Assembly: GCF_050920415.1 (NCBI RefSeq)
Contig: NZ_CP169309.1
Length of the DNA: 64,000 bases
Direction: 5' to 3' (one strand)
Origin: Escherichia coli
GTDB lineage: Bacteria; Pseudomonadota; Gammaproteobacteria; Enterobacterales; Enterobacteriaceae
Shown piece by piece: positions 236 to 40,591 of this stretch. The translations under genes and the position numbers were made by a program. Under the pieces are notes generated by a model, which worked only from the letters and a program-made list of their open reading frames with translations, did no database searches and was not told where the DNA came from. Numbering within the stretch: position 1 is the stretch's first letter; each line of letters begins with the position of its first letter.

Positions 236-1735
236 ATGCTAAATTTATTTGTTGGCCTTGATATATACACAGGGCTTTTGTTATTACTTGCTCTGGCATT
301 TGTGTTGTTCTACGAAGCAATCAATGGTTTTCATGACACGGCGAATGCGGTGGCAACCGTTATTTATACTCGTGCCATGCAGCCACAGCTTGCCGTGGTG
401 ATGGCGGCATTTTTTAACTTTTTTGGCGTATTGCTAGGCGGACTTAGCGTTGCCTATGCCATTGTCCATATGTTGCCAACCGATTTGTTGCTGAATATGG
501 GGTCAACTCACGGCCTGGCGATGGTCTTTTCCATGCTGCTGGCGGCGATTATCTGGAACCTGGGAACGTGGTTCTTTGGTTTACCGGCCTCCAGTTCGCA
601 TACCTTGATTGGTGCGATTATCGGCATCGGTTTAACCAACGCGCTTTTAACCGGCTCATCGGTGATGGATGCGTTAAACCTGCGTGAAGTGACCAAAATT
701 TTCTCCTCGCTGATTGTTTCCCCTATCGTCGGCCTGGTCATTGCGGGAGGCCTGATATTCCTGCTGCGCCGCTACTGGAGCGGGACGAAAAAGCGTGACC
801 GTATTCACCGCATTCCGGAAGATCGCAAAAAGAAAAAAGGCAAACGTAAGCCACCATTCTGGACGCGTATTGCGCTGATTGTTTCCGCTGCGGGCGTGGC
901 GTTTTCGCACGGCGCGAACGACGGGCAGAAAGGGATCGGACTGGTGATGCTGGTACTGGTGGGGATTGCTCCTGCTGGTTTCGTCGTCAATATGAATGCG
1001 TCCGGCTATGAAATTACCCGTACCCGCGATGCCGTCACCAACTTTGAACACTATCTGCAACAGCATCCTGAACTGCCGCAGAAGTTGATTGCGATGGAAC
1101 CTCCATTGCCTGCGGCATCGACTGATGGCACGCAAGTAACGGAGTTTCATTGTCATCCGGCAAATACCTTTGATGCGATTGCGCGCGTTAAAACGATGTT
1201 GCCAGGTAATATGGAAAGCTACGAGCCGTTAAGCGTGAGTCAGCGCAGCCAGCTGCGCCGCATTATGCTGTGCATCTCTGATACCTCTGCGAAGCTGGCG
1301 AAACTGCCAGGCGTCAGTAAAGAAGATCAGAACCTGCTGAAAAAACTGCGCAGCGATATGTTAAGCACCATTGAGTACGCTCCGGTGTGGATCATCATGG
1401 CGGTAGCACTGGCGCTCGGCATTGGCACCATGATTGGCTGGCGTCGTGTAGCGATGACCATCGGTGAGAAGATTGGTAAGCGCGGCATGACGTATGCGCA
1501 AGGCATGGCGGCACAAATGACGGCGGCAGTGTCTATCGGCCTTGCCAGTTATATTGGGATGCCCGTCTCCACAACGCACGTCCTCTCGTCTGCGGTAGCA
1601 GGGACGATGGTGGTGGACGGCGGTGGGTTACAGCGTAAAACGGTAACCAGCATCCTGATGGCGTGGGTGTTTACTTTACCGGCGGCGATTTTTCTGTCTG
1701 GTGGGTTGTACTGGATAGCATTGCAGTTGATTTAA
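236..1735 (+). CDS. pitB: Low-affinity inorganic phosphate transporter, PiT family
   Basis: 499 aa ORF that aligns by eye along its length with E. coli PitA/PitB (N-terminus [26 protein letters not shown]-terminal [22 protein letters not shown]). It differs from PitA at many positions and sits next to yghT, so it is the pitB paralog. Confidence 0.9.
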
Positions 1736-1743
1736 CCTTCCTG

Positions 1744-1780
1744 AAAATGCCCGGTCCTGACGATCGGGCATTTCCATTTT
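1744..1780. terminator. Stem-loop between convergent pitB and yghT, likely bidirectional terminator
   Basis: Inverted repeat AAATGCCCG / CGGGCATTT with an 11 nt loop, followed by a T-rich run on the + strand, in the 48 bp gap between the two convergent stop codons. Confidence 0.5.
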
Positions 1781-1783
1781 TGA

Positions 1784-2476
1784 CTAGTGATAACCACACG
1801 CGGTCATAAAATCCGTAATCGCTTTTTCTGCATCAACCAGCACCTTTTCCAGTGGCTGATTGGCGTCGATATCAACCAGTTGTGCACCACCAAAGGTTAA
1901 CTGTGGCGTTATGGCAATCTTTCTCGCCAGCGATTCCCGTTTATGGTCGGGTTTACGCGCGCAGGCAACTTCAAGGTCAACATTGAGTTTGATAACCAGA
2001 TCAGGCTTATGGCTCGCCATCCAGTGAAATGCTTTACGTTCCTGGCTTGCCAGCCATGAGACAAACCGGCCGCCTTCAACGTTAGGTGGGAACACCGTAC
2101 CATCGTAAGCGCCAGGAATTTGGTCCTGAGGATAACGATCGGTTAAGACAATCAGCCCGCGACGACGACAGGCGAGCATATGACGAAAGCGTAACAGTCG
2201 GCGGGCGACGAAAGCGGTGATCACCAGGGCCGGAACCGGACCCGGCAATTTTTTTGCCGTTTTCACTTCATTTTTTTCAATAGTCTTGTGCAGAGACTTT
2301 CCCATCAACGGTAATTTTGTCACTGCACGACCGACATTTCCGGCCTGTTTTCCTAAATGAACTCTTTCGGCAGCACCATATTTTTCGACAACGGTAATAA
2401 GATGTTCACACACCGTTGACTTGCCTGAACCATCGCTACCAATAACGGCAATTAATGGAGGTGTTATTGACTGCAT
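1784..2476 (-). CDS. yghT: P-loop NTPase, kinase-like (Walker A plus DRY motif); paralog of YghS and YghR
   Basis: 230 aa. Walker [14 protein letters not shown], then LTDRYPQD and ARKPDH motifs shared with the next two genes. No ABC signature (LSGGQ). The fold call (thymidylate/nucleoside kinase-like) is by motif only. Confidence 0.8.
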
Positions 2477-2556
2477 GAATATATCCTTAAATTTAAATAT
2501 CCATCCAAAATATTTATTTGGTTAATATGTTTTTATGAAAGCGTAATTCAGGTCAA

Positions 2557-2581
2557 TGTCACAATTAACCATTGTCACAAT
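2557..2581. promoter_or_regulatory. Direct repeat TGTCACAAT x2 in the divergent yghT/yghS promoter region, candidate operator
   Basis: TGTCACAAT at 2557-2565 and again at 2573-2581, 16 bp apart centre to centre, inside the 173 bp AT-rich divergent intergenic region. Confidence 0.3.
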
Positions 2582-2649
2582 AAGGTTGAACGGATATTCT
2601 GAGCACGGACCACGTAATATTCAATACATTATTTGCTGCCGGGTTTTTC

Positions 2650-3363
2650 GTGAATCAACGTAATATGTCAATAATTAATTCCACGCCAGTGCGTGTTATT
2701 GCCATTGTAGGATGTGATGGTTCAGGTAAATCGACCCTCACGGCAAGCCTGGTAAATGAACTGGCAGCAACAATGCCAACAGAACACATTTATCTCGGGC
2801 AATCGTCCGGGCGAATTGGCGAATGGATTTCACAGCTCCCTGTTATTGGCGCACCTTTTGGGCGTTATCTGCGAAGTAAAGCGGCACATGTGCACGAAAA
2901 GCCCTCCACACCGCCTGGCAATATTACTGCGCTGGTTATCTATCTGCTTTCCTGCTGGCGGGCGTATAAGTTTCGCAAAATGTTGTGTAAAAGCCAGCAA
3001 GGCTATCTGCTCATCACCGACCGCTACCCGCAGGTTGAAGTGCCGGGTTTTCGCTTTGATGGCCCGCAACTGGCAAAAAACACGGGCGGTAACGGCTGGA
3101 TAAAAATGTTAAGACAGCGCGAGCTCAAACTTTACCAATGGATGGCGTCTTATTTGCCCGTATTGTTGATTCGTCTTGGCATTGATGAACAAACCGCGTT
3201 TGCGCGTAAACCTGACCACCAACTGGCGGCGTTACAGGAAAAAATCGCTGTTACGCCGCAACTGACATTCAATGGTGCAAAGATCCTTGAACTGGATGGT
3301 CGGCAACCCGCCGATGAAATTCTGCAAGCGTCACTACGCGCAATTCACGCCGCGCTTTCCTGA
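2650..3363 (+). CDS. yghS: P-loop NTPase, kinase-like; paralog of YghT and YghR
   Basis: 237 aa. Walker A IAIVGCDGSGKST, ITDRYPQ, ARKPDHQLAALQEKIAVTPQLTF; collinear with YghT. Confidence 0.8.
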   Translation: MNQRNMSIINSTPVRVIAIVGCDGSGKSTLTASLVNELAATMPTEHIYLGQSSGRIGEWISQLPVIGAPFGRYLRSKAAHVHEKPSTPPGNITALVIYLLSCWRAYKFRKMLCKSQQGYLLITDRYPQVEVPGFRFDGPQLAKNTGGNGWIKMLRQRELKLYQWMASYLPVLLIRLGIDEQTAFARKPDHQLAALQEKIAVTPQLTFNGAKILELDGRQPADEILQASLRAIHAALS

Positions 3364-3393
3364 TCACCAAATGGATAGGGGATGATTTAACGA

Positions 3394-4152
3394 ATGGATG
3401 CACTACAAACACAAACTGTTAATAGTACAACCGCGCCGCAGCCCAACTACATTCCGGGGCTGATTGCGGTGGTCGGGTGTGATGGCACCGGTAAATCCAC
3501 ACTGACCACTGACCTGGTGAAATCGCTGCAACAACACTGGCAAACCGAGCGCCGCTATCTGGGGCTGCTCTCCGGCGAAGACGGCGACAAAATCAAACGG
3601 TTGCCGCTCGTTGGCGTCTGGCTGGAACGGCGACTGGCGGCCAAATCCTCGAAAACCCAAAGCATGAAAACCAAATCTCCGGCGCTATGGGCGGCGGTGA
3701 TTATGTACTGCTTCTCGCTGCGAAGAATGGCGAATCTACGCAAGGTTCAGCGACTGGCGCAAAGTGGCGTTCTGGTGGTCAGCGATCGCTTCCCGCAGGC
3801 TGAAATTTCGGGCTTTTATTATGACGGACCGGGGATTGGCATCGAGCGTGCGACCGGGAAAATCAGCATGTTTCTGGCCCAGCGCGAACGGCGTTTATAC
3901 CAAAAAATGGCGCAATACCGTCCTGAATTAATTATTCGTTTGGGGATTGATATTGATACTGCCATCTCCCGCAAGCCTGACCATGACTATGCCGAGCTGC
4001 AGGACAAAATCGGTGTCATGTCGACGATTGGCTATAACGGCACAAAAATTCTTGAGATTGATTCCAGAGCGCCCTACAGCGAAGTGCTGGAACAGGCACA
4101 GAAGGCGGTTTCTCTGGTTGCAATCGTTTCTGACCGCCGAAGTTTAACTTAA
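3394..4152 (+). CDS. yghR: P-loop NTPase, kinase-like; paralog of YghT and YghS
   Basis: 252 aa. Walker A IAVVGCDGTGKST, VSDRFPQ, SRKPDHDYAELQDKIG; third copy of the same fold. Confidence 0.8.
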   Translation: MDALQTQTVNSTTAPQPNYIPGLIAVVGCDGTGKSTLTTDLVKSLQQHWQTERRYLGLLSGEDGDKIKRLPLVGVWLERRLAAKSSKTQSMKTKSPALWAAVIMYCFSLRRMANLRKVQRLAQSGVLVVSDRFPQAEISGFYYDGPGIGIERATGKISMFLAQRERRLYQKMAQYRPELIIRLGIDIDTAISRKPDHDYAELQDKIGVMSTIGYNGTKILEIDSRAPYSEVLEQAQKAVSLVAIVSDRRSLT

Positions 4153-4197
4153 GGTTGGCGGGATACTTTTTATTATCAACGATAAGGTCAGGCTGAA

Positions 4198-5547
4198 TTG
4201 GCGGGGTTTAACATCAAACATTGGTTTGCAGATGGCGCGTTTCGCACCATTATTCGCAATAGCGCCTGGTTAGGCTCCAGTAATGTCGTGAGCGCTTTGC
4301 TGGGTCTGTTGGCGCTCTCGTGTGCCGGTAAAGGGATGACGCCCGCCATGTTTGGCGTACTGGTGATTGTGCAATCGTACGCCAAGTCGATCAGCGATTT
4401 TATTAAGTTTCAGACATGGCAGCTGGTGGTTCAGTACGGAACGCCAGCCTTGACCAATAATAATCCGCAGCAATTTCGCAATGTCGTCTCATTTTCCTTC
4501 TCGTTGGATATCGTCAGCGGCGCGGTGGCGATTGTCGGCGGCATTGCCTTACTCCCTTTTCTTTCCCATTCATTAGGTCTGGATGACCAAAGCTTTTGGC
4601 TGGCAGCGCTGTATTGCACGCTCATTCCTTCAATGGCTTCCTCCACACCGACCGGCATTCTGCGTGCAGTAGATCGCTTCGATTTGATTGCTGTACAGCA
4701 GGCGACGAAACCTTTTCTGCGCGCAGCGGGGAGCGTCGTAGCCTGGTATTTTGATTTTGGTTTTGCGGGTTTTGTTATTGCCTGGTACGCATCGAATCTG
4801 GTTGGCGGCACCATGTACTGGTGGTTTGCCGCGCGCGAATTACGCCGCAGAAATATCCATAACGCCTTCAAATTGAATCTGTTTGAGTCTGCCCGACACA
4901 TTAAAGGCGCGTGGAGTTTTGTCTGGTCAACCAACATTGCCCACTCCATCTGGTCGGCACGTAACTCGTGCAGCACAGTGTTGGTGGGGATCGTGTTAGG
5001 ACCCGCTGCCGCCGGGTTATTTAAAATCGCCATGACATTCTTCGATGCCGCCGGAACGCCAGCGGGTTTACTGGGCAAAAGTTTTTACCCAGAGGTGATG
5101 CGTTTAGATCCGCGTACCACCAGACCGTGGTTGTTAGGCGTGAAGTCCGGTTTACTGGCGGGCGGAATCGGTATTCTGGTGGCGCTCGCGGTGTTGATCG
5201 TCGGCAAGCCGCTCATTTCGCTGGTGTTTGGCGTTAAGTATCTCGAAGCGTATGACCTGATTCAGGTGATGCTTGGCGCAATTGTGATTTCGATGCTGGG
5301 CTTCCCACAGGAGTCATTGCTATTGATGGCGGGAAAACAGCGCGCTTTTCTCGTGGCGCAAACCATCGCCTCAATCGGCTACATCGTATTGCTGTTCATG
5401 TTCTGTCATCTGTTTGGCGTGCTGGGGGCTGCATTTGCTTACTTCGGTGGGCAATGTCTGGATGTGGTGCTCTCGTTAATTCCAACCTTAAAGGCATTTT
5501 TTCAGCGCCATTCCTTGCTTTATAACGCAGCCGGAGAGAAATCCTGA
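4198..5547 (+). CDS. yghQ: Multi-pass inner-membrane protein, MOP/polysaccharide-biosynthesis (Wzx/MurJ-like) flippase family
   Basis: 449 aa, highly hydrophobic throughout with many predicted TM segments. The track start is a TTG; the true start may be the internal ATG at about 4333. The stop overlaps the next ORF's start (TGATG). Confidence 0.7.
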   Translation: MAGFNIKHWFADGAFRTIIRNSAWLGSSNVVSALLGLLALSCAGKGMTPAMFGVLVIVQSYAKSISDFIKFQTWQLVVQYGTPALTNNNPQQFRNVVSFSFSLDIVSGAVAIVGGIALLPFLSHSLGLDDQSFWLAALYCTLIPSMASSTPTGILRAVDRFDLIAVQQATKPFLRAAGSVVAWYFDFGFAGFVIAWYASNLVGGTMYWWFAARELRRRNIHNAFKLNLFESARHIKGAWSFVWSTNIAHSIWSARNSCSTVLVGIVLGPAAAGLFKIAMTFFDAAGTPAGLLGKSFYPEVMRLDPRTTRPWLLGVKSGLLAGGIGILVALAVLIVGKPLISLVFGVKYLEAYDLIQVMLGAIVISMLGFPQESLLLMAGKQRAFLVAQTIASIGYIVLLFMFCHLFGVLGAAFAYFGGQCLDVVLSLIPTLKAFFQRHSLLYNAAGEKS

Positions 5548-5993
5548 TGATGAGAAAATATTTCCCGCTTGAGGCGAGCGAGCGTCTATTTATTGCAGTT
5601 GAAGAAGATGATGTCGTTGATGCGCAGGTCAGTTTACCGCCGACTATCGCAACAGGTTGTACCACCGAAATCATTCATGATAATTACGCGTTATGCCTGC
5701 AATTCTGGCTGAATGGCGTTGATCGTCAGGAATTACTGCGTTTAATCCACAAACAAGCCAAAGGCGAGGGGCTTACGGCTGACGAGCGTAAACAGTTTAA
5801 ATATATGCGGGCGCGTTATAAGCATCTACGTTTTGCCCAACGGTTGTATTTAAAAAAGCATCAGGCCGGATTTTTATTTGGCAAAACGACCGTTTTTCTT
5901 GGACGTTTTCAGGACGGCTTTCGTAACGGTAAGAAAAATATTGTGTCGTTTTACGGCAACCTTTTACGGATTTATTTAAGCTCTCCGGTCTAG
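5547..5993 (+). CDS. Hypothetical protein, no recognisable motif
   Basis: 148 aa ORF whose ATG overlaps the yghQ stop (translational coupling), same strand as neighbours. Basic, soluble-looking. Confidence 0.5.
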   Translation: MMRKYFPLEASERLFIAVEEDDVVDAQVSLPPTIATGCTTEIIHDNYALCLQFWLNGVDRQELLRLIHKQAKGEGLTADERKQFKYMRARYKHLRFAQRLYLKKHQAGFLFGKTTVFLGRFQDGFRNGKKNIVSFYGNLLRIYLSSPV

Positions 5994-6371
5994 TTGTTGG
6001 TGAACTATTCATTACGCCATAGCCAGTTAGAAAGCGTAAGCGGTTTTATTGCCTATCGGCAAAAGCAAATGCACCTCCTGAAAGAGATTATTGCCAAACC
6101 ACGGCTAACTGGCAGGGAATTTCATGATGTACGAAAAATAATCAGCCAGCAGGTTTCTTATTACGACACCCTAAGATCGCTTGATCCTGAAAATAAAGAA
6201 GCGTTACAGATTTCCCGCTTCCTCGCCGCCATTAATGGCCTGATGGGGGATAAACACGACGACATGGTGGCGGATGATATGGAAAACCGCCAGTCGTATG
6301 ATGCACCGATGGCGCTGGATAGCGATATTCGTCAGCGCTTAGAACTGCTGATTTCGCGTTTTCCGCTATAA
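5994..6371 (+). CDS. Hypothetical protein, start uncertain
   Basis: 125 aa ORF immediately after the previous stop. The track start is TTG; the first in-frame ATG is at about 6069. No motif recognised. Confidence 0.35.
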   Translation: MLVNYSLRHSQLESVSGFIAYRQKQMHLLKEIIAKPRLTGREFHDVRKIISQQVSYYDTLRSLDPENKEALQISRFLAAINGLMGDKHDDMVADDMENRQSYDAPMALDSDIRQRLELLISRFPL

Positions 6372-6379
6372 CCGGAGCA

Positions 6380-6943
6380 ATGATGTCATCTCGTTTGATT
6401 ATTGCGCTGATTATCATGCTCTTAGCCCCGGGTGTGCAGGCGCACAATTTCGTCACTGGTAAAACGGTTACCCCTGTTTATATCCAGGAAGGCGGCGAGC
6501 TGCTTCTGAATAGCGACGACGAAATTCACTACCAAAAGTGGAACAGCACACAGCTGGCGGGAAAAGTCCGCATTATTCAGTATATCGCCGGGCGTAAGTC
6601 GGCGAAGAAAAAGAACTCACTGTTAATTAAAGCGGTTGAAGCGGCAAACTTTCCGCAGGATCGTTTTCAGCCCACCACCATTGTGAACACCGATGATGCC
6701 ATCTTTGGTACTGGCTATTTTGTCGTTGGCAAAATCGAAAAAAATAAACGCCGCTATCCGTGGGCGCAATTCGTTATTGACGGCAATGGACAGGGACGCG
6801 TTGTCTGGCGGTTGCCGGAGCAGAGTTCAACCATTCTGGTGCTGAATAAAGCCGGGCAAATTCAGTGGGCAAAGGACGGCAGCCTGACGCCGGAAGAGGT
6901 AGATCATGTCATTGCGCTGGCGCAGAAGCTGATCAATGAATAA
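6380..6943 (+). CDS. Secreted/periplasmic protein with cleavable signal peptide, function unknown
   Basis: 187 aa. N-terminus MMSSRLIIALIIMLLAPGVQA|HN is a typical Sec signal peptide. It lies directly upstream of the LptF/LptG-like pair. Any YtfJ-like or LptA/LptC-like assignment is unverified. Confidence 0.6.
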   Translation: MMSSRLIIALIIMLLAPGVQAHNFVTGKTVTPVYIQEGGELLLNSDDEIHYQKWNSTQLAGKVRIIQYIAGRKSAKKKNSLLIKAVEAANFPQDRFQPTTIVNTDDAIFGTGYFVVGKIEKNKRRYPWAQFVIDGNGQGRVVWRLPEQSSTILVLNKAGQIQWAKDGSLTPEEVDHVIALAQKLINE

Positions 6944-6973: not shown

Positions 6974-8044
6974 ATGAAGCTGGTTGAACACTACATCATG
7001 CGTGGTACGCGCCGTCTGGTGCTGATTATCGTCGGTTTTCTGATCTTTATTTTCGCCAGCTACTCCGCACAGCGTTATCTGACCGAAGCGGCAAATGGGA
7101 CATTAGCTCTTGATGTTGTGCTGGATATTGTTTTCTACAAGGTGCTGATTGCACTGGAGATGTTGTTACCTGTTGGACTGTATGTGTCAGTTGGCGTGAC
7201 GCTAGGGCAGATGTATACCGACTCGGAAATTACCGCTATTTCTGCGGCGGGGGGGAGTCCGGGACGCTTGTACAAAGCCGTTCTTTATCTGGCGATACCG
7301 CTAAGTATTTTTGTCACCCTTCTGTCGATGTATGGTCGTCCGTGGGCTTATGCGCAGATTTATCAACTGGAGCAACAGTCGCAGTCGGAGCTGGATGTTC
7401 GCCAGTTGCGGGCAAAGAAATTTAACACTAACGATAACGGACGAATGATCCTTTCGCAGACGGTTGATCAGGATAATAATCGCCTGACTGACGTGCTGAT
7501 TTATACTTCTACTGCCAATCGAACCCGTATTTTCCGCGCCCGTTCGGTTGATGTAGTTGACCCATCACCCGAGAAACCGACCGTTATGTTGCATAACGGG
7601 ACCGCCTATCTTCTCGATCATCAGGGGCGTGACGACAACGAACAGATCTACCGTAATCTGCAATTGCATCTGAATCCGCTGGATCAAAGCCCTAACGTCA
7701 AACGCAAAGCAAAATCGGTCACGGAGCTGGCGCGCTCCGCCTTTCCTGCCGATCATGCCGAACTGCAATGGCGACAAAGCCGTGGCCTGACAGCATTGTT
7801 GATGGCGCTGCTGGCCATTTCATTAAGTCGGGTAAAACCGCGGCAAGGGCGATTTTCAACGTTATTGCCACTGACGTTGCTGTTTGTTGCCATTTTTTAT
7901 GGCGGCGACGTCTGCCGTACGCTGGTGGCTAACGGCGCGATTCCCCTCATTCCTGGTTTGTGGTTAGTACCCGGACTCATGCTAATGGGCCTGCTGATGC
8001 TGGTCGCACGCGACTTCTCTTTGCTGCAGAAATTTTCCCGATGA
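6974..8044 (+). CDS. LptF/LptG-family (YjgP/YjgQ) permease, paralog 1
   Basis: 356 aa. N-terminal TM helix, then a large periplasmic domain and C-terminal TM bundle, matching the LptF/LptG topology. Stop overlaps the next start (ATGA). Confidence 0.8.
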   Translation: MKLVEHYIMRGTRRLVLIIVGFLIFIFASYSAQRYLTEAANGTLALDVVLDIVFYKVLIALEMLLPVGLYVSVGVTLGQMYTDSEITAISAAGGSPGRLYKAVLYLAIPLSIFVTLLSMYGRPWAYAQIYQLEQQSQSELDVRQLRAKKFNTNDNGRMILSQTVDQDNNRLTDVLIYTSTANRTRIFRARSVDVVDPSPEKPTVMLHNGTAYLLDHQGRDDNEQIYRNLQLHLNPLDQSPNVKRKAKSVTELARSAFPADHAELQWRQSRGLTALLMALLAISLSRVKPRQGRFSTLLPLTLLFVAIFYGGDVCRTLVANGAIPLIPGLWLVPGLMLMGLLMLVARDFSLLQKFSR

Positions 8045-9120
8045 ATGTTTTCAGTCGCTATTTAATTCGTCATCTCTTTCTCGGTTTTGCCGCCGCCGCA
8101 GGGCTATTGCTGCCGCTCTTTACCACCTTCAACCTGATTAACGAACTGGATGATGTCAGCCCGGGTGGTTATCGCTGGACTCAGGCGGTGCTGGTGGTGC
8201 TGATGACCTTACCGCGCACACTGGTCGAACTTTCGCCGTTTATCGCCTTATTGGGAGGGATTGTCGGCCTGGGGCAGTTATCGAAAAACAGTGAGCTTAC
8301 CGCCATTCGCAGCACGGGGTTTTCTATCTTCCGTATTGCACTGGTGGCGCTGGTTGCCGGGATATTGTGGACTGTTTCATTAGGCACGATAGATGAGTGG
8401 GTGGCGTCGCCATTGCAGCAACAGGCGCTGCAAATCAAATCGACTGCCACTGCGTTGGGGGAGGACGATGACATTACCGGCAATATGCTGTGGGCCAGGC
8501 GTGGTAATGAATTTGTGACGGTGAAATCGCTGAACGAGCAGGGCCAGCCGGTGGGCGTGGAGATATTTCATTACCGCGACGATCTCTCGCTCGAATCCTA
8601 CATTTATGCACGCAGTGCCACCATTGAAGACGACAAAACGTGGATCCTGCATGGTGTGAATCATAAAAAATGGCTGAATGGCAAAGAAACGCTGGAAACA
8701 TCTGATAATCTTGCCTGGCAATCGGCCTTCACCAGTATGAATCTTGAAGAGTTATCGATGCCGGGAAATACTTTTTCTGTCCGTCAACTTAATCATTACA
8801 TCCATTATTTGCAGGAAACCGGGCAACCCAGCAGCGAATACCGCTTTGCACTGTGGGAAAAACTGGGACAACCCATCTTGACCCTTGCGATGATTTTGCT
8901 GGCTGTGCCGTTTACCTTTAGTGCCCCGCGTTCGCCTGGGATGGGTAGCCGTCTCGCTGTAGGCGTCATCGTGGGGTTACTCACCTGGAGCAGCTATCAA
9001 ATCATGGTCAATCTGGGATTGCTATTTGCGTTGAGCGCACCTGTTACCGCGCTCGGTTTACCGATAGCGTTTATGCTGGTGGCGTTGAGCCTGGTGTATT
9101 GGTATGACAGTCAACATTAA
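8041..9120 (+). CDS. LptF/LptG-family (YjgP/YjgQ) permease, paralog 2
   Basis: Start taken at the ATG at 8041 (MNVFSRYLIRHLFLGF...), not the longer track ORF from 7960. LGQLSKNSELTAIRSTGFS parallels LptG LGMLAQRSELVVMQASGFT. Periplasmic middle domain and C-terminal TMs. Confidence 0.8.
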   Translation: MNVFSRYLIRHLFLGFAAAAGLLLPLFTTFNLINELDDVSPGGYRWTQAVLVVLMTLPRTLVELSPFIALLGGIVGLGQLSKNSELTAIRSTGFSIFRIALVALVAGILWTVSLGTIDEWVASPLQQQALQIKSTATALGEDDDITGNMLWARRGNEFVTVKSLNEQGQPVGVEIFHYRDDLSLESYIYARSATIEDDKTWILHGVNHKKWLNGKETLETSDNLAWQSAFTSMNLEELSMPGNTFSVRQLNHYIHYLQETGQPSSEYRFALWEKLGQPILTLAMILLAVPFTFSAPRSPGMGSRLAVGVIVGLLTWSSYQIMVNLGLLFALSAPVTALGLPIAFMLVALSLVYWYDSQH

Positions 9121-9154: not shown

Positions 9155-10327
9155 TTACTGCTTCAGAGTAGCAAATGCCTGAATGATGGCATCGATTTGC
9201 TCACGAGTGTGGGCAGCGTTTACGCTACAGCGCAGCAGCGTGATGCCTGCAGGCGCGGCAGGTGGCAGGATAAGATTCACATAAACGCCCAGCGAAATAA
9301 GCTCGCGCCAGATGCGTAAACCTTCCTCTTTCGAACCGATTATTACTGGCACTACCGGGCTAATATGTGAACTTAACTCGTAACCCAGTTTTTGCAGACC
9401 GTCATACAGATGGCTGGCGTTATCCATCAGCTTTTGCCGCAACTCTGGTTGTGAGGCAATGGTTCTTAACGACGAGCGCACGGTCGCAATGCAGGACGGA
9501 GAAGGAGAGGCGGTAAAAATATACGGGCGGCTGCCGTAGCGCAGCACTTCCATCGCTTCCGAACCGACAGCAAAACCGCCAATCGAGGCCAGACTTTTAC
9601 TGAAAGTACCAACGATAATATCCACATCATCTTCAACGCCAACGGCTTCAGCCAGTCCGCGCCCCGTTGCGCCTAACACGCCAAACGAATGCGCTTCATC
9701 GACAATCAAATAACCACCGAGACGACGTTTGATATCAACAATTTCCGCCAGCGGCGCAACGTCACCGAGCATACTGTAGATGCCTTCAACGATGATAATC
9801 GCCTCTTTTGCCCGTTCACCGAGGCGAACCATGCGCCGTTCCAGATCTTTAGCATCGTTATGGCGGAAACGAATAATTTCCGCTCCACCGAGAGAACAGG
9901 CGTCATAAATACTGGCGTGGCTATCGGCATCCAGTAACACCACGGCGTTATGGTCGGCAAGTGCGCTGATGACACCTAAATTAGCGGTATAACCGGTTGA
10001 AAAAACGATAGCGGTAGGGCGATTGAAAAACTCGGCAATCTCTTTCTCTAACGCCAGATGTGGCGCATAGCTGCCATTAGCCATACGAGAACCGGTAGTG
10101 CCGGTGCCTTGTGCCGCTAATGCTGCCTGACCTTCGGTGATGGCATCATGATTGAAAGTTAAACCGAGATAATTATTAGTCCCGGCCAGAATCACTTTTT
10201 TATTGCCGATACGGCCTTCAGTGGCGGAGTACACTTCATCAATACAGGTACCAAACGGCGTTAATCCGTTGTCACTAAATTGCAGTCGCTCGCCAGCAAG
10301 GCGCGCATATTTATCGTATAGCCCCAT
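9155..10327 (-). CDS. PLP-dependent alpha-oxoamine synthase (serine palmitoyltransferase / KBL / BioF family)
   Basis: 390 aa. Motifs DEAHSFGVLGATGRG and GTFSKSLASIGGF (PLP lysine) are hallmarks of alpha-oxoamine synthases. Start overlaps the ACP stop by 1 nt. Confidence 0.85.
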   Translation of the reverse strand: MGLYDKYARLAGERLQFSDNGLTPFGTCIDEVYSATEGRIGNKKVILAGTNNYLGLTFNHDAITEGQAALAAQGTGTTGSRMANGSYAPHLALEKEIAEFFNRPTAIVFSTGYTANLGVISALADHNAVVLLDADSHASIYDACSLGGAEIIRFRHNDAKDLERRMVRLGERAKEAIIIVEGIYSMLGDVAPLAEIVDIKRRLGGYLIVDEAHSFGVLGATGRGLAEAVGVEDDVDIIVGTFSKSLASIGGFAVGSEAMEVLRYGSRPYIFTASPSPSCIATVRSSLRTIASQPELRQKLMDNASHLYDGLQKLGYELSSHISPVVPVIIGSKEEGLRIWRELISLGVYVNLILPPAAPAGITLLRCSVNAAHTREQIDAIIQAFATLKQ

Positions 10328-10575
10328 TATTTATTCTCCAGCCATGGAAGTAGAGTTTCCATTAATTGCGCAGGGGTTTTGACATCCAGCAGAATATTAA
10401 TAGGAATGGAAATATCGAATCTGTCTTCCAGCATCATTAAGAGATCCATCACTTTGATCGACTCCAGGCCAAGATCGTTGACGAGATCGCTGTCGGGCTT
10501 AATTTCCACACCGTTTTCGACCAAATCCTGTAAACAGGAAAGGATGTAATCCATTACTATTTCACGATTTACCAT
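10327..10575 (-). CDS. Acyl carrier protein (phosphopantetheine-binding)
   Basis: 82 aa acidic protein. DLGLESIKVMDL is a candidate 4'-phosphopantetheine attachment site. Lies between the synthase and the reductase. Confidence 0.75.
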   Translation of the reverse strand: MVNREIVMDYILSCLQDLVENGVEIKPDSDLVNDLGLESIKVMDLLMMLEDRFDISIPINILLDVKTPAQLMETLLPWLENK

Positions 10576-10606: not shown

Positions 10607-11521
10607 TCAAAATAGCCCGCTGCGTAATGCGTGTTCCAGGCTAATCCCGGGAAACCAATTAATATCTTCAGAAATACGGTTATTACTTGCTGACCAGTCG
10701 GCGTGGGTTAATTCACGGATTTTCGAGCGGGTCAGCATAGGTTCTTTACCTGCCAGGCGACTCAACGCGGTACTGATATCCGCAAGGCAGGTGAGTACCG
10801 ACAGAGGAATACCAACCATTCGAACGGAACCGCAACGGGCGTCGGCGGCAAGTTGCTGTACGCGTTGCCAGTCATAGCCGCCGGCGACGCCATCGCATAA
10901 TTCATAGGTTTGCGTTTGTACAGTTTCGGCGCTTAACCACTGCCCCACGGCTTGCGCGAAATCGGTGACGTGCAGGAAAGAGAGCTGTGTATCTGGCGCA
11001 CCAAGTCGTGGCAGCAGGCCGCGCAGCATCCAGCCAAACAGCGGTTTTAACTCTTTATCGCCGGGACCATACACGGCTGTCGGGCGAAAAATGCCCAGCG
11101 TAATTTCGTCAGCCATTGCGGTCAGTCGTTGTTCGGCGACGTGTTTGGAATTTGCGTACCAGGAGAGTTCGGGATGGCGCGCCGCCAGCGAAGAGATAAA
11201 CAGAAAACGTTGGCAAAAGCCGCTCTCTTTTGCCGCTTGCATCAGGCGCAGGCTGCCGTCAACGTTACAGCGGGTAAAAATCTCTTCTTTGTGTCCGCGC
11301 ACTTGCCCGGCGCAATGGACCACCGCGCTGGCTCCGGCAACCAGTTCGCTAAGCGAATGTGTATCTTCCAGCGAACCGCGCACCCAGATGAGATTATCAT
11401 TGACGTGAGCGCGGGCAGTACGCGTCAATGCGCGAACGTGAAAGCCGCGGGCGAGCAGGTTATCGATAATATATTTACCGATAAACCCGGTAGCGCCCGT
11501 CACCGCGACAGTTTGATTCAT
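10607..11521 (-). CDS. NAD(P)-dependent epimerase/dehydratase-family reductase (extended SDR)
   Basis: 304 aa. N-terminal Rossmann motif VAVTGATGFIG and catalytic YANSK (YxxxK). Start overlaps the ligase stop (ATGA). Confidence 0.8.
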   Translation of the reverse strand: MNQTVAVTGATGFIGKYIIDNLLARGFHVRALTRTARAHVNDNLIWVRGSLEDTHSLSELVAGASAVVHCAGQVRGHKEEIFTRCNVDGSLRLMQAAKESGFCQRFLFISSLAARHPELSWYANSKHVAEQRLTAMADEITLGIFRPTAVYGPGDKELKPLFGWMLRGLLPRLGAPDTQLSFLHVTDFAQAVGQWLSAETVQTQTYELCDGVAGGYDWQRVQQLAADARCGSVRMVGIPLSVLTCLADISTALSRLAGKEPMLTRSKIRELTHADWSASNNRISEDINWFPGISLEHALRSGLF

Positions 11522-13236
11522 GCCATGGATTCCTGCACATGAAGGCTTGCAGCATAACGTTTTTTCGCTTCCGCACGGGCAGGCTTGCCGGAGGACGTTC
11601 GGGGAATACTGTGGGGCGGCAACAGATCGATAGCCGCTGTTACGCCAAATTCGCTTTGGATCCGTGCTGCCAGTGCGTGGATAAGCTGCCCACGACGTTC
11701 TTCGTCGCTGATCCTACACTGGATCTGCAAAATGATTTTTTCCTGGGCGGTAACAAAAGCAATCGCATCGCCAGAATGAATTTCCGGTTCCTGTTCCGCA
11801 ATATATTCAATATCCTGCGGCCAGATATTACGGCCACGAATAATAATCAGATCTTTAATGCGCCCGGTGACATACAGATAACCATCCAGCAGATAACCGA
11901 GGTCGCCGGTATCTAACCAGCCCGTCGCGGCAATCTCGTCTTGCGAAACCTGGTCGCCAAAGTAACCGCTCATCAGGCTGGGGCCGGAGATGCAAATATG
12001 GCCTACCACACGTTCCGCGACCGGCATACCTGCTTCATTGCGGATTTCAATGCCATGTTCCGGCAACGCTTTACCGCAGTTGACGAAAGTCGATACGGCG
12101 CGTGTTTCAGCACCCGGCGCGACGGCTTTGCCCTGATATTCAAGGATGTCGCGATCCACTTCGTTAACCACAACCCCGGAGGCTTCATCAGAGAAGCTGA
12201 CAGCCAGCGCATTTTCTGCCAGTCCGTAGCACGGCATGAAAGTTTTATCGTCAAAGTTAACCTGACGGAAACATTCAGCAAATTGGTGGAGTTGTTCTGC
12301 GGAGATGGGTTCTGCGCCAATACCAGCGACGCGCCAGCACGAGAGATCCAGTTCAGCGAGATCTTTTTCATTCACGCGGCGCTGACACAATTCATAGCCA
12401 AACGGCGGCGCGACGGAAACTGTGCCACGATTTTTACTGATCAATTTAAGCCATTGCAGCGGACGCATGGCAAAATCCTGAGTGCGCAAATAATCTACTG
12501 AGAGCTGCGTGGCGACGGGGGTCAGGAGAAAGCCGACCAGTCCCATATCATGGTAGAAAGGCAGCCAGGAGACGCAGCGGTCGCCAGGGCGTAATTTAAT
12601 GCCATCGTGGCTTATAGCACGTAGATTAGCCATCACTTCGCGATGGGTGATAATGACGCCACGGGGAAAACGGGTGCTGCCGGAGGTGTACTGGAGGTAG
12701 GCGATATCGTTCGGAACTGGACGCTGGAGTACAACATCGGCTTCCGGTAATGCCTTAAACCAGGCGTGGCTTAAAACATGTAATTCGGGGTTGTTATGCG
12801 TAGCAGCATTGACCAGTGGCAACCACTCATCACCAGTGATAATGGCTGCGGGCTGGCAACTAGCCAGTAAACCTTGCAGTTTAGCGCTCCAGGAATCCCG
12901 CTGACCGACGCCCATTGGAATCGCTAACGGGACGGCGACTAAGCCGGCATACTGGCAGGCAAAAAAAGCCTCTACAAACCCGCTACTCGTTTCGGCAATC
13001 AGCGCCACGCGATCGCCTTTTTTCAGATTTAGTGATAACAACCGCTTCGCACCAGCTTCGGCACACGCTTTTAACGTCTGATATTCCAGTTGATCTTCAA
13101 GTTGGCAACGTCTGTCATAAAAATTCATTCCGGCGCTACTCAGAGCGGCGTAGTCCAAAGCATCAACCAGCGTTGGAAAATCGGCATAGCGCATAGGTAG
13201 GGAATGCGTAAAGATGTTATTAGACATATACACCAC
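11518..13236 (-). CDS. Fatty-acyl-AMP ligase / acyl-ACP synthetase (adenylate-forming enzyme)
   Basis: 572 aa. AMP-binding motifs YTSGSTRFPRGV, DTGDLGY and GRIKDLIIIRGRNIWPQDIE. The exact start (Met1, Met4 or Met15) is uncertain. Confidence 0.85.
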   Translation of the reverse strand: MVYMSNNIFTHSLPMRYADFPTLVDALDYAALSSAGMNFYDRRCQLEDQLEYQTLKACAEAGAKRLLSLNLKKGDRVALIAETSSGFVEAFFACQYAGLVAVPLAIPMGVGQRDSWSAKLQGLLASCQPAAIITGDEWLPLVNAATHNNPELHVLSHAWFKALPEADVVLQRPVPNDIAYLQYTSGSTRFPRGVIITHREVMANLRAISHDGIKLRPGDRCVSWLPFYHDMGLVGFLLTPVATQLSVDYLRTQDFAMRPLQWLKLISKNRGTVSVAPPFGYELCQRRVNEKDLAELDLSCWRVAGIGAEPISAEQLHQFAECFRQVNFDDKTFMPCYGLAENALAVSFSDEASGVVVNEVDRDILEYQGKAVAPGAETRAVSTFVNCGKALPEHGIEIRNEAGMPVAERVVGHICISGPSLMSGYFGDQVSQDEIAATGWLDTGDLGYLLDGYLYVTGRIKDLIIIRGRNIWPQDIEYIAEQEPEIHSGDAIAFVTAQEKIILQIQCRISDEERRGQLIHALAARIQSEFGVTAAIDLLPPHSIPRTSSGKPARAEAKKRYAASLHVQESMA

Positions 13237-13598: not shown

Positions 13599-14741
13599 AT
13601 GGAATGCGATCTGCTGATGATTAAAATTGAAAAAGTAATTAATAAAAATGACCTTAAGGCATTTATCGCTTTTCCGTCATCACTTTATCCCGATGATCCA
13701 AACTGGATACCCCCTTTGTTCATTGAACGCAGCGAGCATTTGTCGGCGAAGAATCCGGGGACGGACCATATTATCTGGCAGGCGTGGGTAGCAAAAAAAG
13801 CGGGGCAGATAGTCGGGCGGATTACCGCGCAAATCGATACCTTGCACCGCGAGCGTTACGGTGACGATACCGGTCATTTCGGCATGATTGACGCCATTGA
13901 TGATCCGCAGGTTTTTGCCGCGTTGTTTGGCGCAGCGGAAGCGTGGTTGAAGTCACAAGGTGCAAGTAAGATCAGCGGGCCTTTCAGCCTGAATATCAAT
14001 CAGGAAAGCGGATTACTGATTGAAGGTTTCGACACTCCGCCCTGTGCGATGATGCCGCACGGTAAACCGTGGTATGCCGCGCATATTGAACAATTGGGTT
14101 ATCACAAAGGTATTGATTTACTGGCGTGGTGGATGCAACGAACCGATCTCACTTTCTCTCCGGCGCTAAAAAAACTGATGGATCAGGTGCGCAAAAAGGT
14201 GACCATTCGCTGCATCAAGCGCCAGCGGTTTGCCGAAGAGATGCTGATCCTGCGTGAGATTTTCAACTCTGGCTGGCAGCACAACTGGGGATTTGTGCCG
14301 TTTACCGAACATGAATTCGCTACCATGGGCGATCAACTAAAGTATCTGGTACCGGACGATATGATCTACGTCGCCGAGATTGATTCTGCTCCCTGCGCGT
14401 TTATAGTCGGCTTGCCGAACATCAACGAGGCGATTGCCGATCTGAACGGAGCGCTCTTTCCCTTCGGCTGGGCAAAATTGCTGTGGCGCTTAAAAGTCAG
14501 CGGTGTGCGAACTGCGCGAGTGCCGCTGATGGGCGTGCGTGACGAGTATCAGTTCAGCCGCATCGGCCCGGTGATTGCGCTGTTATTGATTGAAGCCTTA
14601 CGCGATCCGTTTGCTCGCCGGAAGATCGATGCGCTGGAAATGTCATGGATCCTCGAAACCAATACAGGCATGAATAACATGCTGGAACGCATTGGAGCGG
14701 AGCCGTACAAGCGTTACCGATTGTATGAAAAGCAGATTTGA
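13599..14741 (+). CDS. yghO: YghO-family protein, probably acyl-CoA N-acyltransferase fold (GNAT-like)
   Basis: 380 aa intact ORF. I recognise the name from its position next to glcC. The GNAT-like assignment is from memory of annotations, not from a motif I can point to. Confidence 0.65.
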   Translation: MECDLLMIKIEKVINKNDLKAFIAFPSSLYPDDPNWIPPLFIERSEHLSAKNPGTDHIIWQAWVAKKAGQIVGRITAQIDTLHRERYGDDTGHFGMIDAIDDPQVFAALFGAAEAWLKSQGASKISGPFSLNINQESGLLIEGFDTPPCAMMPHGKPWYAAHIEQLGYHKGIDLLAWWMQRTDLTFSPALKKLMDQVRKKVTIRCIKRQRFAEEMLILREIFNSGWQHNWGFVPFTEHEFATMGDQLKYLVPDDMIYVAEIDSAPCAFIVGLPNINEAIADLNGALFPFGWAKLLWRLKVSGVRTARVPLMGVRDEYQFSRIGPVIALLLIEALRDPFARRKIDALEMSWILETNTGMNNMLERIGAEPYKRYRLYEKQI

Positions 14742-29371: not shown

Positions 29372-30181
29372 ATGTTTTTTGATGTTTTTCAGCAATACCC
29401 CGCGGCGATGCCCGTCCTGGCTACCGTCGGAGGATTGATTATCGGCAGTTTTTTGAATGTGGTGATTTGGCGTTACCCCATCATGCTGCGCCAACAAATG
29501 GCGGAGTTTCACGGTGAAATGCCGAGTACGCAGTCAAAAATAAGCCTTGCGCTACCGCGTTCGCACTGCCCACATTGTCAGCAGACCATCCGGATACGTG
29601 ACAATATTCCGCTGCTCTCCTGGCTGATGCTCAAAGGGCGCTGCCGTGATTGTCAGGCGAAAATCAGCAAGCGTTATCCGCTGGTGGAGTTATTGACAGC
29701 ACTCGCTTTTTTGCTGGCGAGTCTGGTCTGGCCGGAAAGTGGATGGGCGCTGGCGGTGATGATATTATCCGCCTGGCTGATTGCCGCGAGCATCATTGAC
29801 CTCGATAACCAATGGCTGCCCGATGTTTTTACTCAGGGCGTATTGTGGACCGGGCTGATTGCGGCATGGGTGCAACAGAGTCCGTTAACGCTACAAGACG
29901 CAGTTACCGGCGTCCTGGTGGGATTTATCACTTTTTACTCCCTGCGCTGGATAGCCGGAATAGTTCTGCGTAAAGAAGCATTAGGCATGGGCGATGTATT
30001 ACTCTTCGCCGCGTTAGGTGGCTGGGTGGGCGCGTTGTCGCTGCCCAATGTGGCTTTAATCGCCTCATGCTGCGGCCTGATATATGCCGTTATTACAAAA
30101 AGAGGATCAACCACACTGCCTTTTGGACCGTGTTTAAGTCTGGGCGGTATAGCAACACTTTATCTACAGGCATTGTTTTAA
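29372..30181 (+). CDS. pppA: Prepilin peptidase (GspO/PulO family) for T2SS pseudopilins
   Basis: 269 aa polytopic membrane protein with a cysteine-rich cytoplasmic loop (CPHCQQ...CRDCQ) typical of prepilin peptidases. Confidence 0.9.
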
Positions 30182-30246
30182 TGATAACCCCGTCATTATC
30201 AAAGTGACATTTTAACTCTTATTAATAACCTTGGAGATTATTTACC

Positions 30247-30657
30247 ATGTCGATAAAACAGATGCCAGGGAGGGTATTAATATCGCTATTGTTGAGCGTT
30301 ACAGGATTATTAAGTGGCTGTGCCAGCCATAATGAAAATGCCAGTTTACTGGCGAAAAAACAGGCGCAAAATATCAGCCAAAACCTGCCGATTAAATCTG
30401 CGGGATATACCTTAGTGCTGGCGCAAAGTAGCGGCACGACGGTAAAAATGACCATTATCAGCGAAGCGGGTGCTCAGACCACGCAGACGCCAGACGCCTT
30501 TTTAACCAGCTACCAACGACAAATGTGCGCTGACCCGACGGTGAAATTAATGCTCACTGAGGGAATTAATTACAGCATAACGATTAATGATACACGTACA
30601 GGTAACCAGTATCAGCGGAAACTGGATCGCACCACCTGTGGAATAGTCAAAGCATAA
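30247..30657 (+). CDS. yghG: Small outer-membrane lipoprotein YghG, T2SS-beta secretin pilotin-like
   Basis: 136 aa, signal peptide with lipobox LLSGC. Conserved position between pppA and gspC. Confidence 0.8.
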   Translation: MSIKQMPGRVLISLLLSVTGLLSGCASHNENASLLAKKQAQNISQNLPIKSAGYTLVLAQSSGTTVKMTIISEAGAQTTQTPDAFLTSYQRQMCADPTVKLMLTEGINYSITINDTRTGNQYQRKLDRTTCGIVKA

Positions 30658-30672
30658 CGTCGGGTATATAAA

Positions 30673-31626
30673 TTGGCGCGGGTTGTTTTTCGTGACGCAC
30701 GAATTTATCTCATTCAATGGCTGACTAAAATTCGTCACACTCTTAACCAGAGACAATCTCTTAATACAAACAAAGAGCATCTTCGCAAAATTGTACGCGC
30801 GATGTTCTGGCTGATGCTGCTTATTATTTCTGCAAAAATGGCGTATTCACTCTGGCGCTATTTCTCCTTTTCTGCGGAATATACGGCGGTTTCTCCATCG
30901 GTGAATAAACAGCCCCATGCGGATGTAAAAACGTTCGATAAAAAAGATGTGCAATTAATCAGCCAGCAAAACTGGTTTGGTAAATATCAGCGCGTCGCCA
31001 CACCGGTAAAGCAACCTGAACCTGTAGCAGAAACGCGTCTTAATGTGGTGCTGCGCGGGATCGCCTTTGGTGCCAGACCCGGCGCGGTTATTGAAGAAGG
31101 TGGCAAACAGCAGGTCTATTTGCAGGGTGAACGGCTTGGCTCTCACAACGCATTGATTGAGGAAATCAATCGCGACCATGTGATGCTGCGCTATCAGGGA
31201 AAAATAGAGCGGCTCAGTCTGGCAGAAGAGGAGCGTTCCACCGTAGCCGTGACCAACAAAAAAGCCGTCAGTGACGAAGCAAAGCAAGCTGTTGCTGAGC
31301 CTGCTACCCGTGCGCCCGTTGAGATCCCGGCTGCTGTGCGTCAGGCACTGGCGAAAGATCCGCAGAAAATTTTTAACTATATCCAGCTTACGCCTGTGCG
31401 TAAGGAGGGAATTGTCGGTTATGCAGTGAAGCCGGGGGCAGATCGTTCTCTGTTCGATGCCAGCGGTTTCAGGGAAGGCGATATCGCCATTGCGCTCAAT
31501 CAGCAGGATTTCACTGATCCACGAGCAATGATTGCTCTGATGCGGCAGTTACCTTCAATGGATTCCATTCAACTTACGGTTTTACGCAAGGGTGCGCGCT
31601 ACGACATTTCCATCGCGCTGCGCTAA
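30673..31626 (+). CDS. gspC: T2SS protein GspC
   Basis: TM segment near the N-terminus, then a Pro/Ala-rich linker and C-terminal PDZ-like region. Precedes gspD. The start codon is uncertain (track start is TTG). Confidence 0.8.
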   Translation: MARVVFRDARIYLIQWLTKIRHTLNQRQSLNTNKEHLRKIVRAMFWLMLLIISAKMAYSLWRYFSFSAEYTAVSPSVNKQPHADVKTFDKKDVQLISQQNWFGKYQRVATPVKQPEPVAETRLNVVLRGIAFGARPGAVIEEGGKQQVYLQGERLGSHNALIEEINRDHVMLRYQGKIERLSLAEEERSTVAVTNKKAVSDEAKQAVAEPATRAPVEIPAAVRQALAKDPQKIFNYIQLTPVRKEGIVGYAVKPGADRSLFDASGFREGDIAIALNQQDFTDPRAMIALMRQLPSMDSIQLTVLRKGARYDISIALR

Positions 31627-31655
31627 CCGCATTTAATCCAGGAGAATCATTCATC

Positions 31656-36432: not shown

Positions 36433-36448
36433 TTTACGGAGTTATCAC

Positions 36449-36904
36449 ATGAATTCGTTATCCCGCACACAAGAACCACGGGCAGGTTTTACCCTGCTGG
36501 AAGTGATGGTGGTGATTGTTATTCTTGGCGTCCTGGCAAGTCTGGTGGTGCCTAACCTTTTGGGCAACAAAGAGAAAGCAGATCGGCAAAAAGCCATCAG
36601 CGATATCGTGGCGCTGGAGAACGCGCTGGATATGTATCGACTGGATAACGGGCGTTATCCGACCACCGAACAGGGGCTTGAGGCGCTGATCCAGCAACCG
36701 GCCAATATGGCGGACTCCCGCAACTACCGTCCTGGTGGATACATCAAACGGCTGCCAAAGGATCCGTGGGGCAATGATTATCAGTATCTCAGCCCGGGTG
36801 AAAAAGGACTGTTTGATGTTTACACCTTAGGGGCGGATGGTCAGGAAAACGGGGAAGGTGCTGGCGCAGATATCGGTAACTGGAATTTGCAGGAGTTTCA
36901 GTAA
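36449..36904 (+). CDS. gspG: T2SS major pseudopilin GspG
   Basis: Start at the ATG at 36449 (RBS GGAG). Prepilin leader and cleavage site ...RAGFTLLEVMVVIVILGVLASLVVPN. Confidence 0.9.
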   Translation: MNSLSRTQEPRAGFTLLEVMVVIVILGVLASLVVPNLLGNKEKADRQKAISDIVALENALDMYRLDNGRYPTTEQGLEALIQQPANMADSRNYRPGGYIKRLPKDPWGNDYQYLSPGEKGLFDVYTLGADGQENGEGAGADIGNWNLQEFQ

Positions 36905-36907
36905 TCA

Positions 36908-37471: not shown

Positions 37472-37839
37472 AGCGCGGATTTACCTTGCTGGAAGTGATG
37501 ATCGCACTGGCGATTTTTGCGCTGGCTGCCACGGCGGTGTTACAGATTGCCAGCGGTGCGCTGAGTAATCAGCAAATCCTTGAGGAAAAAACGGTAGCGG
37601 GCTGGGTAGCTGAAAACCAGACCGCACTGCTCTACCTGATGACCCGTGAACAACGAGCGGTCAGGCACCAGGGCGAGAGTGATATGGCTGGAAGCCGCTG
37701 GTACTGGCGAACCACACCGCTGAATACCGGTAACGCGCTGCTCCAGGCGGTGGATATTGAAGTCAGTCTTCATGAAGACTTTTCGTCGGTGATTCAGTCA
37801 CGACGCGCCTGGTTTAGCGCCGTGGGAGGCCAACAGTGA
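37468..37839 (+). CDS. gspI: T2SS minor pseudopilin GspI
   Basis: MKRGFTLLEVMIALAIF prepilin motif. ATGA overlap with gspH. Confidence 0.85.
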   Translation: MKRGFTLLEVMIALAIFALAATAVLQIASGALSNQQILEEKTVAGWVAENQTALLYLMTREQRAVRHQGESDMAGSRWYWRTTPLNTGNALLQAVDIEVSLHEDFSSVIQSRRAWFSAVGGQQ

Positions 37840-40590: not shown

Positions 40591-40591
40591 C

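Follow-up and report, generated by a model that had tools for sequence, protein, structure and literature searches.

What do three adjacent kinase-like genes contribute to a sphingolipid locus of Escherichia coli? The question is raised by yghT, yghS and yghR, which occupy positions 1784-4152 of a 64,000-nucleotide stretch of E. coli DNA (the window, to whose whole length all window coordinates refer) and are the leading genes of a sphingolipid locus already known, that of the E. coli B type. The ceramide-synthesis half of this locus of E. coli and the Enterobacterales is biochemically characterised, and the trio bears on the head group of the lipid and on its route to the outer membrane. The answer given here is tentative: on sequence and analogy it is quite possible that YghT, YghS and YghR act as ATP-dependent phosphotransferases with non-redundant roles, which would build a phosphorylated, possibly pyro- or oligophosphate, ceramide head group. 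What is new is a clade of three paralogues in the thymidylate-kinase superfamily that is tied to bacterial sphingolipid loci.

Paralogy, fold and motifs of the trio

In the window, yghT (1784-2476, minus strand) encodes 230 amino acids, yghS (2650-3363, plus strand) 237 and yghR (3394-4152, plus strand) 252, coordinates that coincide exactly with the three kinase-like open reading frames (ORFs) of the first-pass annotation of this DNA. Window positions 1700-4300 are a 100% match to the RefSeq record of an E. coli chromosome (NZ_CP169399.1), in which the first two ORFs bear the gene names yghT and yghS. The description of the genes as tandem holds for yghS and yghR, which lie head-to-tail, but not for the inverted yghT. 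A divergent promoter had also been proposed; yghT is indeed inverted across an AT-rich intergenic region of 173 bp (2477-2649), presumed to be a promoter region, but the promoter scan did not rise above background, and the one weak sigma-70-like match (2572-2600, plus strand) is not above the shuffled expectation. The trio was rightly placed at the head of a lipid cluster, since a flippase gene, lptF and lptG paralogues, spt, an acyl carrier protein gene, aasR and yghO all lie downstream.

Pairwise BLASTP gave 37% identity for YghT-YghS (E 4e-55), 34% for YghT-YghR (E 5e-47) and 43% for YghS-YghR (E 1e-62). The similarity is far above chance and the three proteins are clear paralogues, as the first-pass annotation had claimed. 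The P-loop common to all three is G(S/C)DG(S/T)GKST, in YghR GCDGTGKST, and the DRX-region motif is TDRYPQ in YghT and YghS and SDRFPQ in YghR; both had been recognised earlier as Walker A and DRY/DRF motifs. An ARKPDH block, ascribed to all three, is found in YghT and YghS but reads SRKPDH in YghR. A motif scan revealed no LSGGQ-like ABC signature in any of the three, again as first described, and the Pfam ABC_tran match covers the P-loop only (E 0.01-0.06); an ABC transporter ATPase was rejected on these two grounds.

The trio has the three-layer alpha/beta fold of thymidylate kinases, and all its members, like the clades they represent, carry the P-loop, DRX motif and basic lid of that superfamily. 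The thymidylate/deoxynucleoside kinase fold named at first pass is therefore correct, and the nearest neighbours in the fold search are not non-catalytic P-loop proteins. Among the top structural neighbours is ST1543 (2plr), a homologue of the polyphosphate kinase subunit cPPK3. Thymidylate kinases are the nearest relatives by sequence and structure, ahead of the deoxynucleoside kinases (dNK, dCK and dGK), whose acceptor is a nucleoside hydroxyl, which score lower and have no significant sequence match to the trio. P-loop kinases can use lipid acceptors, as LpxK, the lipid A 4'-kinase, shows; LpxK acts on an outer-membrane lipid precursor but belongs to another P-loop family, and it is not among the top structural or sequence matches of the trio.

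Within the superfamily the sequences place the trio in a distinct, previously unclassified clade. The match to TIGR00041, the equivalog model for thymidylate (dTMP) kinase, is full-length but weak (25.7, 24.7 and 31.3 bits against a curated cut-off of 83.25), and none of the three proteins has a significant Pfam domain (Thymidylate_kin, i-Evalue 0.019). An alignment of hidden Markov models places an invariant Asp-Gly of the trio family where the base-reading motif of thymidylate kinases has Gln-Gly, the Gln of which serves base reading. The Ygh proteins differ from thymidylate kinases also in other acceptor-side residues, in being about 40 residues longer, with a long basic helix, and in forming three fixed paralogues inside a lipid locus. 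Because yghS and yghT reach only 25-26 bits with TIGR00041 against the cut-off of 83, the PGAP name "dTMP kinase" is not earned and is likely an over-annotation, which has spread to thousands of genomes.

Conservation with ceramide genes

Relatives were collected from one genome per species with YghS as the query; 321 were found and the best 80 loci were kept, onto which the locus proteins were mapped by tblastn. The loci come from Gammaproteobacteria (Enterobacterales, Xanthomonadales-type genera and Carnimonas), Betaproteobacteria (Nitrotoga, Sulfuritalea, Gallionellaceae and Methylotenera), Alphaproteobacteria (Sphingobium, Novosphingobium and Acetobacter) and Deltaproteobacteria (Myxococcales and metagenome-assembled genomes). 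YghS, the query, is matched in 80 of the 80 loci, YghR in 77, YghT in 68, the flippase YghQ in 62, the CHAD-like protein described below in 55, AcpR in 55, Spt in 54, CerR in 51, AasR in 48, LptF2/G2 in 36 and YghO in 29. In the 54 full loci, those covering the whole 20 kb, Spt lies within 10 kb of the trio in 43 and all three kinases occur in 50. The trio is tied to ceramide genes over four proteobacterial classes, in company with the CHAD-like protein and the MOP flippase.

A neighbour-joining tree of 204 family ORFs resolves exactly three clades, T (68 ORFs besides references), S (66) and R (70), named for YghT, YghS and YghR. Clade T was seen in 66 loci, and one T, one S and one R occur together in 51 of 78. 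Orthologues from different classes are 50-60% identical, which exceeds the 34-43% found among the three proteins of E. coli, so that by sequence divergence the triplication is ancient, each copy having been retained; the sub-functionalised triplication suggested at first pass agrees with these three clean orthologous clades. The P-loop, DRxPQ, DG, a Glu and RKPDH are kept in each clade, the DR of DRxPQ at 90% or more in T, S and R, so that all three clades appear able to catalyse. Where they diverge from one another is the stretch following strand 2 and the long basic helix, which correspond to the acceptor-binding region of thymidylate kinases.

Gene order is conserved as well. On one strand yghS is followed by yghR in 59 of 61 loci, and yghT lies divergently upstream of yghS in 47 of 55. 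A natural S-R fusion (P0121) was found, and fused S-R and T-S/R proteins occur in metagenomes, which hints that the paralogues may work together physically. Most of window positions 1700-4300 is carried by 4604 of 5426 complete E. coli genomes (about 85% with yghTSR), and the spt-aasR block by 4067 (about 75%). In K-12-type genomes the block from the CHAD-like gene to aasR is gone, and yghTSR and yghO remain as remnants of the sphingolipid locus; IS5 in these genomes follows a truncated yghQ and precedes yghO, as in NZ_CP092702.1 (locus L002, 11500-13694). The K-12-type state is a recent IS5-associated deletion.

Two neighbours of the trio recur with it. YghQ (4198-5547, plus strand) is a Wzx-like flippase of the MOP type, with a weak NCBIfam MOP flippase match in the window and Polysacc_synt in orthologous loci. 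The next gene (5547-6371, plus strand; 274 amino acids in RefSeq) encodes an all-helical protein with no match in Pfam, including CHAD (PF05235), in NCBIfam or among PDB sequences at E up to 10. Its predicted model (pLDDT, the predicted local distance difference test, 94.6) resembles the CHAD domain in having two four-helix bundles with conserved basic residues, and its further fold matches are generic four-helix bundles with about 107 residues aligned. CHAD domains consist of two four-helix bundles with conserved basic patches and bind polyphosphate (PMC6537752). The family of the 274-residue protein has invariant Arg, Lys and His columns and an isoelectric point of 9.3, and YghT, YghS, YghR and the CHAD-like protein are all basic.

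The allele of the CHAD-like gene is unusual, most genomes being 90-95% identical in this gene against 95-99% in yghTSR. The window has an in-frame stop at 5991-5993 (W149 to stop). The RefSeq record, otherwise the same, lacks it, as do all 5426 complete E. coli genomes, among which the best match is 99.9% (one mismatch).

A possible head-group pathway and its alternatives

The trio, the CHAD-like protein and YghQ would together make up a head-group module, conserved alongside the genes for ceramide synthesis in many proteobacterial loci. The pathway that we infer, in its phosphoryl-transfer activity, lipid acceptor, phosphoanhydride product and order of steps, would begin with the phosphorylation of ceramide, for which a DgkA-type or CpgB-type lipid kinase, or conceivably a member of the trio, would be responsible. 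With ATP as donor, the trio would then add more phosphoryl groups to this phosphorylated head group, each enzyme with its own step or all as a hetero-oligomer, to give a strongly anionic pyro- or oligophosphate ceramide, which YghQ would flip and the LptF2/G2 paralogues would extract towards the outer membrane. LptF2/G2 are needed for sphingolipid transport in Caulobacter, where they bind the housekeeping LptB (bioRxiv 10.64898/2026.04.12.717747). Transfer of phosphate onto phosphate is suggested because phosphotransfer is the sole head-group chemistry encoded with the ceramide genes, because dedicated lipid kinases often accompany the trio, and because thymidylate kinases, the closest enzymes, carry out such a transfer. 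A phosphoanhydride product is suggested because the partner resembles a domain that binds a phosphoanhydride polymer and all four proteins are basic.

Dedicated lipid kinases also bear on the place of the trio in the pathway. DgkA-like kinases were found by tblastn in 20 of the 80 loci and a kinase of the DAGK_cat/YegS type (the CpgB class) beside the trio in four distant ones (L017 8816-9877, L058 2670-3809, L076 5378-6421 and L079 13253-14239). Since such kinases co-occur with the trio in 24 of the 80 loci, the primary ceramide kinase, and with it the first phosphorylation, is probably to be sought outside the trio; the DgkA-like gene may encode a dedicated ceramide kinase. This gene is small (DAGK_prokar, for example L003 2279-2644 and L005 12359-12730) and is present within loci of Serratia, Pantoea, Erwinia, Rosenbergiella, Carnimonas and others, not of E. 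coli.

In Caulobacter the ceramide kinase is CpgB, a DAGK_cat/YegS-type enzyme with a GGDG motif (PMC10331486), and the cpg genes make ceramide phosphoglycerate (PMC11324152). CpgB, like the trio, is encoded in a proteobacterial sphingolipid locus, and its activity adds phosphate for an anionic sphingolipid head group. However, its fold is unrelated, and a CpgB-type ceramide kinase by homology was rejected for YghT, YghS and YghR because they have neither a DAGK_cat match nor GGDG; in the four loci that have them, CpgB-like genes stand alongside the trio, not in its place. The E. coli locus has no counterpart of the Caulobacter cpg genes, and the module, borne by loci without these head-group genes, would be an alternative to the cpg pathway. 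The earlier proposal that the trio phosphorylates a lipid head group as ceramide kinases do gains from the synteny with ceramide genes, but it stands as an analogy, not as homology to CpgB, and probably not for the first step.

A more specific version, in which the trio and the CHAD-like protein make ceramide oligophosphate by way of ceramide mono-, di- and triphosphate (Cer-P to Cer-PP to Cer-PPP), is rather unlikely. Each paralogue would add one phosphate, as nucleoside monophosphate and diphosphate kinases do, the CHAD-like protein would hold the phosphoanhydride chain, and the Wzx-like flippase would recognise pyrophosphate, as on undecaprenyl-pyrophosphate substrates.

Several observations weigh against a phosphorylated ceramide head group made by the trio. 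The literature search, within the library covered, returned no characterisation of yghR, yghS or yghT, no thymidylate kinase connected with a bacterial sphingolipid, and no mention of ceramide pyro-, di-, tri- or polyphosphate. Spt is not within 10 kb in 11 of the 54 full loci, and about 540 complete E. coli genomes, the K-12 type included, have yghTSR without the spt block. The likeness of the partner to CHAD is structural only, with no Pfam CHAD or PDB sequence match. Distant relatives of the trio occur in Wzx/Wzy polysaccharide clusters without ceramide genes, which leaves room in the family for an acceptor other than ceramide. The module also occurs in sphingomonads (L076 and L080), whose described glycosphingolipids are not known to be phosphorylated.

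The alternatives divide over the acceptor and over catalysis itself. The version of the first-pass annotation, in which the paralogues are direct ceramide kinases acting on different hydroxyls (C1-OH, C3-OH or acyl-chain OH) or on different ceramide species, is unlikely. The fold serves both hydroxyl and phosphate acceptors, deoxynucleoside kinases phosphorylating a 5'-OH; most loci, that of E. coli included, encode no other lipid kinase in the cluster, and the LpxO-like Asp/Arg hydroxylase that neighbours the trio in 17 loci could create an extra hydroxyl. Against this, the DgkA-like and DAGK_cat kinases of 24 loci would be redundant, the nearest relatives are thymidylate kinases with their phosphate acceptors, not deoxynucleoside kinases, and the CHAD-like partner is left unexplained. 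It is decidedly improbable that the trio serves a non-sphingolipid envelope acceptor handled by the MOP flippase, such as an undecaprenyl-phosphate-linked glycan, a sugar or a polysaccharide, the link to ceramide being indirect. The hundreds of distant relatives that are about 500 amino acids long or fused to MOP flippases or GT4 glycosyltransferases fit such an acceptor, as does a fused gene directly after a Polysacc_synt flippase amid GT4, Wzy and sulfotransferase genes (L086), and so do the K-12-type genomes with yghTSR and no spt. The T, S and R clades proper, however, are linked across classes to Spt, AcpR, CerR and AasR, no glycosyltransferase is encoded in the E. coli locus, and the K-12 state is the recent deletion noted above. 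That the proteins are genuine dTMP or nucleotide kinases is least credible: the RefSeq product name and the weak full-length match to TIGR00041 speak for it, whereas the 25-31 bits fall short of the cut-off of 83, no significant Thymidylate_kin match was found in Pfam, the base-reading motif has the invariant Asp-Gly, and the genes are syntenic with lipid genes. E. coli has its canonical tmk elsewhere.

PPK3, the heteromeric polyphosphate kinase of Sulfolobus (cPPK3 and rPPK3; PMC12995831), offers the nearest functional analogy. There too thymidylate-kinase-like paralogues lie adjacent; a CHAD-type protein accompanies them, as a protein CHAD-like by fold accompanies the trio, and the cPPK3 homologue ST1543 is structurally near the trio. 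PPK3 transfers phosphate onto a phosphate acceptor, a chemistry which by analogy the trio may share. It is nevertheless improbable that the trio is a PPK3-like complex for the synthesis or consumption of inorganic polyphosphate, with the CHAD-like protein binding the polymer and the polymer perhaps serving the sphingolipid pathway as phosphate donor or counter-ion. The DRX arginine, which the regulatory PPK3 subunit has lost (PMC12995831), is kept in all clades, and there are three Ygh paralogues, against two in PPK3, none without it. By sequence profile the Ygh family lies nearer to canonical thymidylate kinases (1.3e-10) than to ST1543 (1.6e-4, matched in the P-loop region only). PPX, SixA and Pst are absent from the recurrent neighbour families of the related loci, and the surroundings are instead genes of ceramide synthesis and export, with a partner that is CHAD-like by fold only. 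E. coli, moreover, already has PPK1. Membership in PPK3 was rejected because of the arginine, the profile preference and the lack of PPX, SixA and Pst among the recurrent neighbours, and the trio is not a PPK3. Regulatory thymidylate-kinase-like subunits do exist in PPK3 (PMC12995831), and the locus encodes no LptB dedicated to the LptF2/G2 paralogues; both points would suit P-loop proteins with a regulatory or non-catalytic role, for instance as scaffolds that bind ATP or as energisers of the flippase or of LptF2/G2. This is very improbable, given that the P-loop Lys, the DRX Asp and Arg and the basic lid are kept in all clades, that an ABC signature is absent, and that in Caulobacter LptF2/G2 bind the housekeeping LptB (bioRxiv 10.64898/2026.04.12.717747).

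Other genes of the locus and significance

The gene pitB lies upstream of yghT in the window. Beyond the CHAD-like gene follow a YtfJ-family periplasmic protein (6380-6943, plus strand; NCBIfam TIGR01626, 209 bits, above the cut-off) and two permeases, the LptF2-type paralogue of LptF (6974-8044, plus strand; NCBIfam TIGR04407, 323 bits) and the LptG2-type paralogue of LptG (8041-9120, plus strand; RefSeq annotation and tblastn map). The minus strand then carries, by RefSeq annotation and PMC9386255, spt for serine palmitoyltransferase (9155-10327), acpR for a specialised acyl carrier protein (10327-10575), a cerR-type reductase gene of the NAD-dependent epimerase/dehydratase family (10607-11521) and aasR for an acyl-ACP synthetase (fatty acyl-AMP ligase; 11518-13227). 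Spt, AcpR and AasR of the E. coli B-type locus are biochemically characterised (PMC9386255). On the plus strand yghO (13599-14741; RefSeq annotation) encodes an N-acyltransferase of the bacterial ceramide synthase type, listed as the acyl-CoA N-acyltransferase of the locus (yghO/ECD_02850; PMC9386255); neither Pfam nor NCBIfam assigns YghO to a family. RefSeq annotation and NCBIfam give no glycosyltransferase, CDP-alcohol transferase or nucleotidyltransferase in the E. coli locus. Farther along the window, downstream of the glc genes, an ORF of 1525 amino acids (24665-29242, plus strand) precedes a long run of ORFs on the same strand (29372-41143).

DUF2147, a PEMT-like methyltransferase and an LptA-like protein are among the recurrent neighbours of the trio in the related loci. 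So are PAP2 lipid-phosphate phosphatases of two families (15 and 7 loci), one of which has a signal peptide. In Beta- and Gammaproteobacterial loci these phosphatase genes (e.g. L052 7562-8125 and L053 1515-2198) recur beside the trio, and so do the other three.

At E up to 1e-3 there are 2172 more distant relatives. Many are about 500 amino acids long (P0163, P0169 and P0172), an unassigned N-terminal domain of about 250 residues with the motif HWKSNxHLxxALxGExDxDLLV being fused to the kinase domain; others are fused to a MOP flippase or a GT4 glycosyltransferase (e.g. P0215, 978 amino acids, and P0253, 669 amino acids). The idea that the CHAD-like protein is the N-terminal domain of the 500-residue relatives was rejected, as BLAST and phmmer found nothing and the hhalign probability was 0.9%. 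In two Wzx/Wzy clusters (L086 7223-9482 and L088 8001-10186) the fused gene after the flippase is followed by a second small P-loop protein without DRX. Because distant relatives sit in such clusters, after the flippase, the wider family, judged by its gene neighbourhoods, is coupled to the export of envelope glycoconjugates, and the ancestral acceptor may have been something other than ceramide.

The head group of the enterobacterial sphingolipid is now open to direct testing by a few deletions and kinase assays. The proposed pathway suggests a second case, after archaeal PPK3, in which thymidylate-kinase paralogues would have been recruited with a CHAD partner for phosphate-on-phosphate chemistry. 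Ceramide oligophosphate, if it is made, would represent a class of anionic outer-membrane lipids not described before, and about 75% of complete E. coli genomes would encode it.

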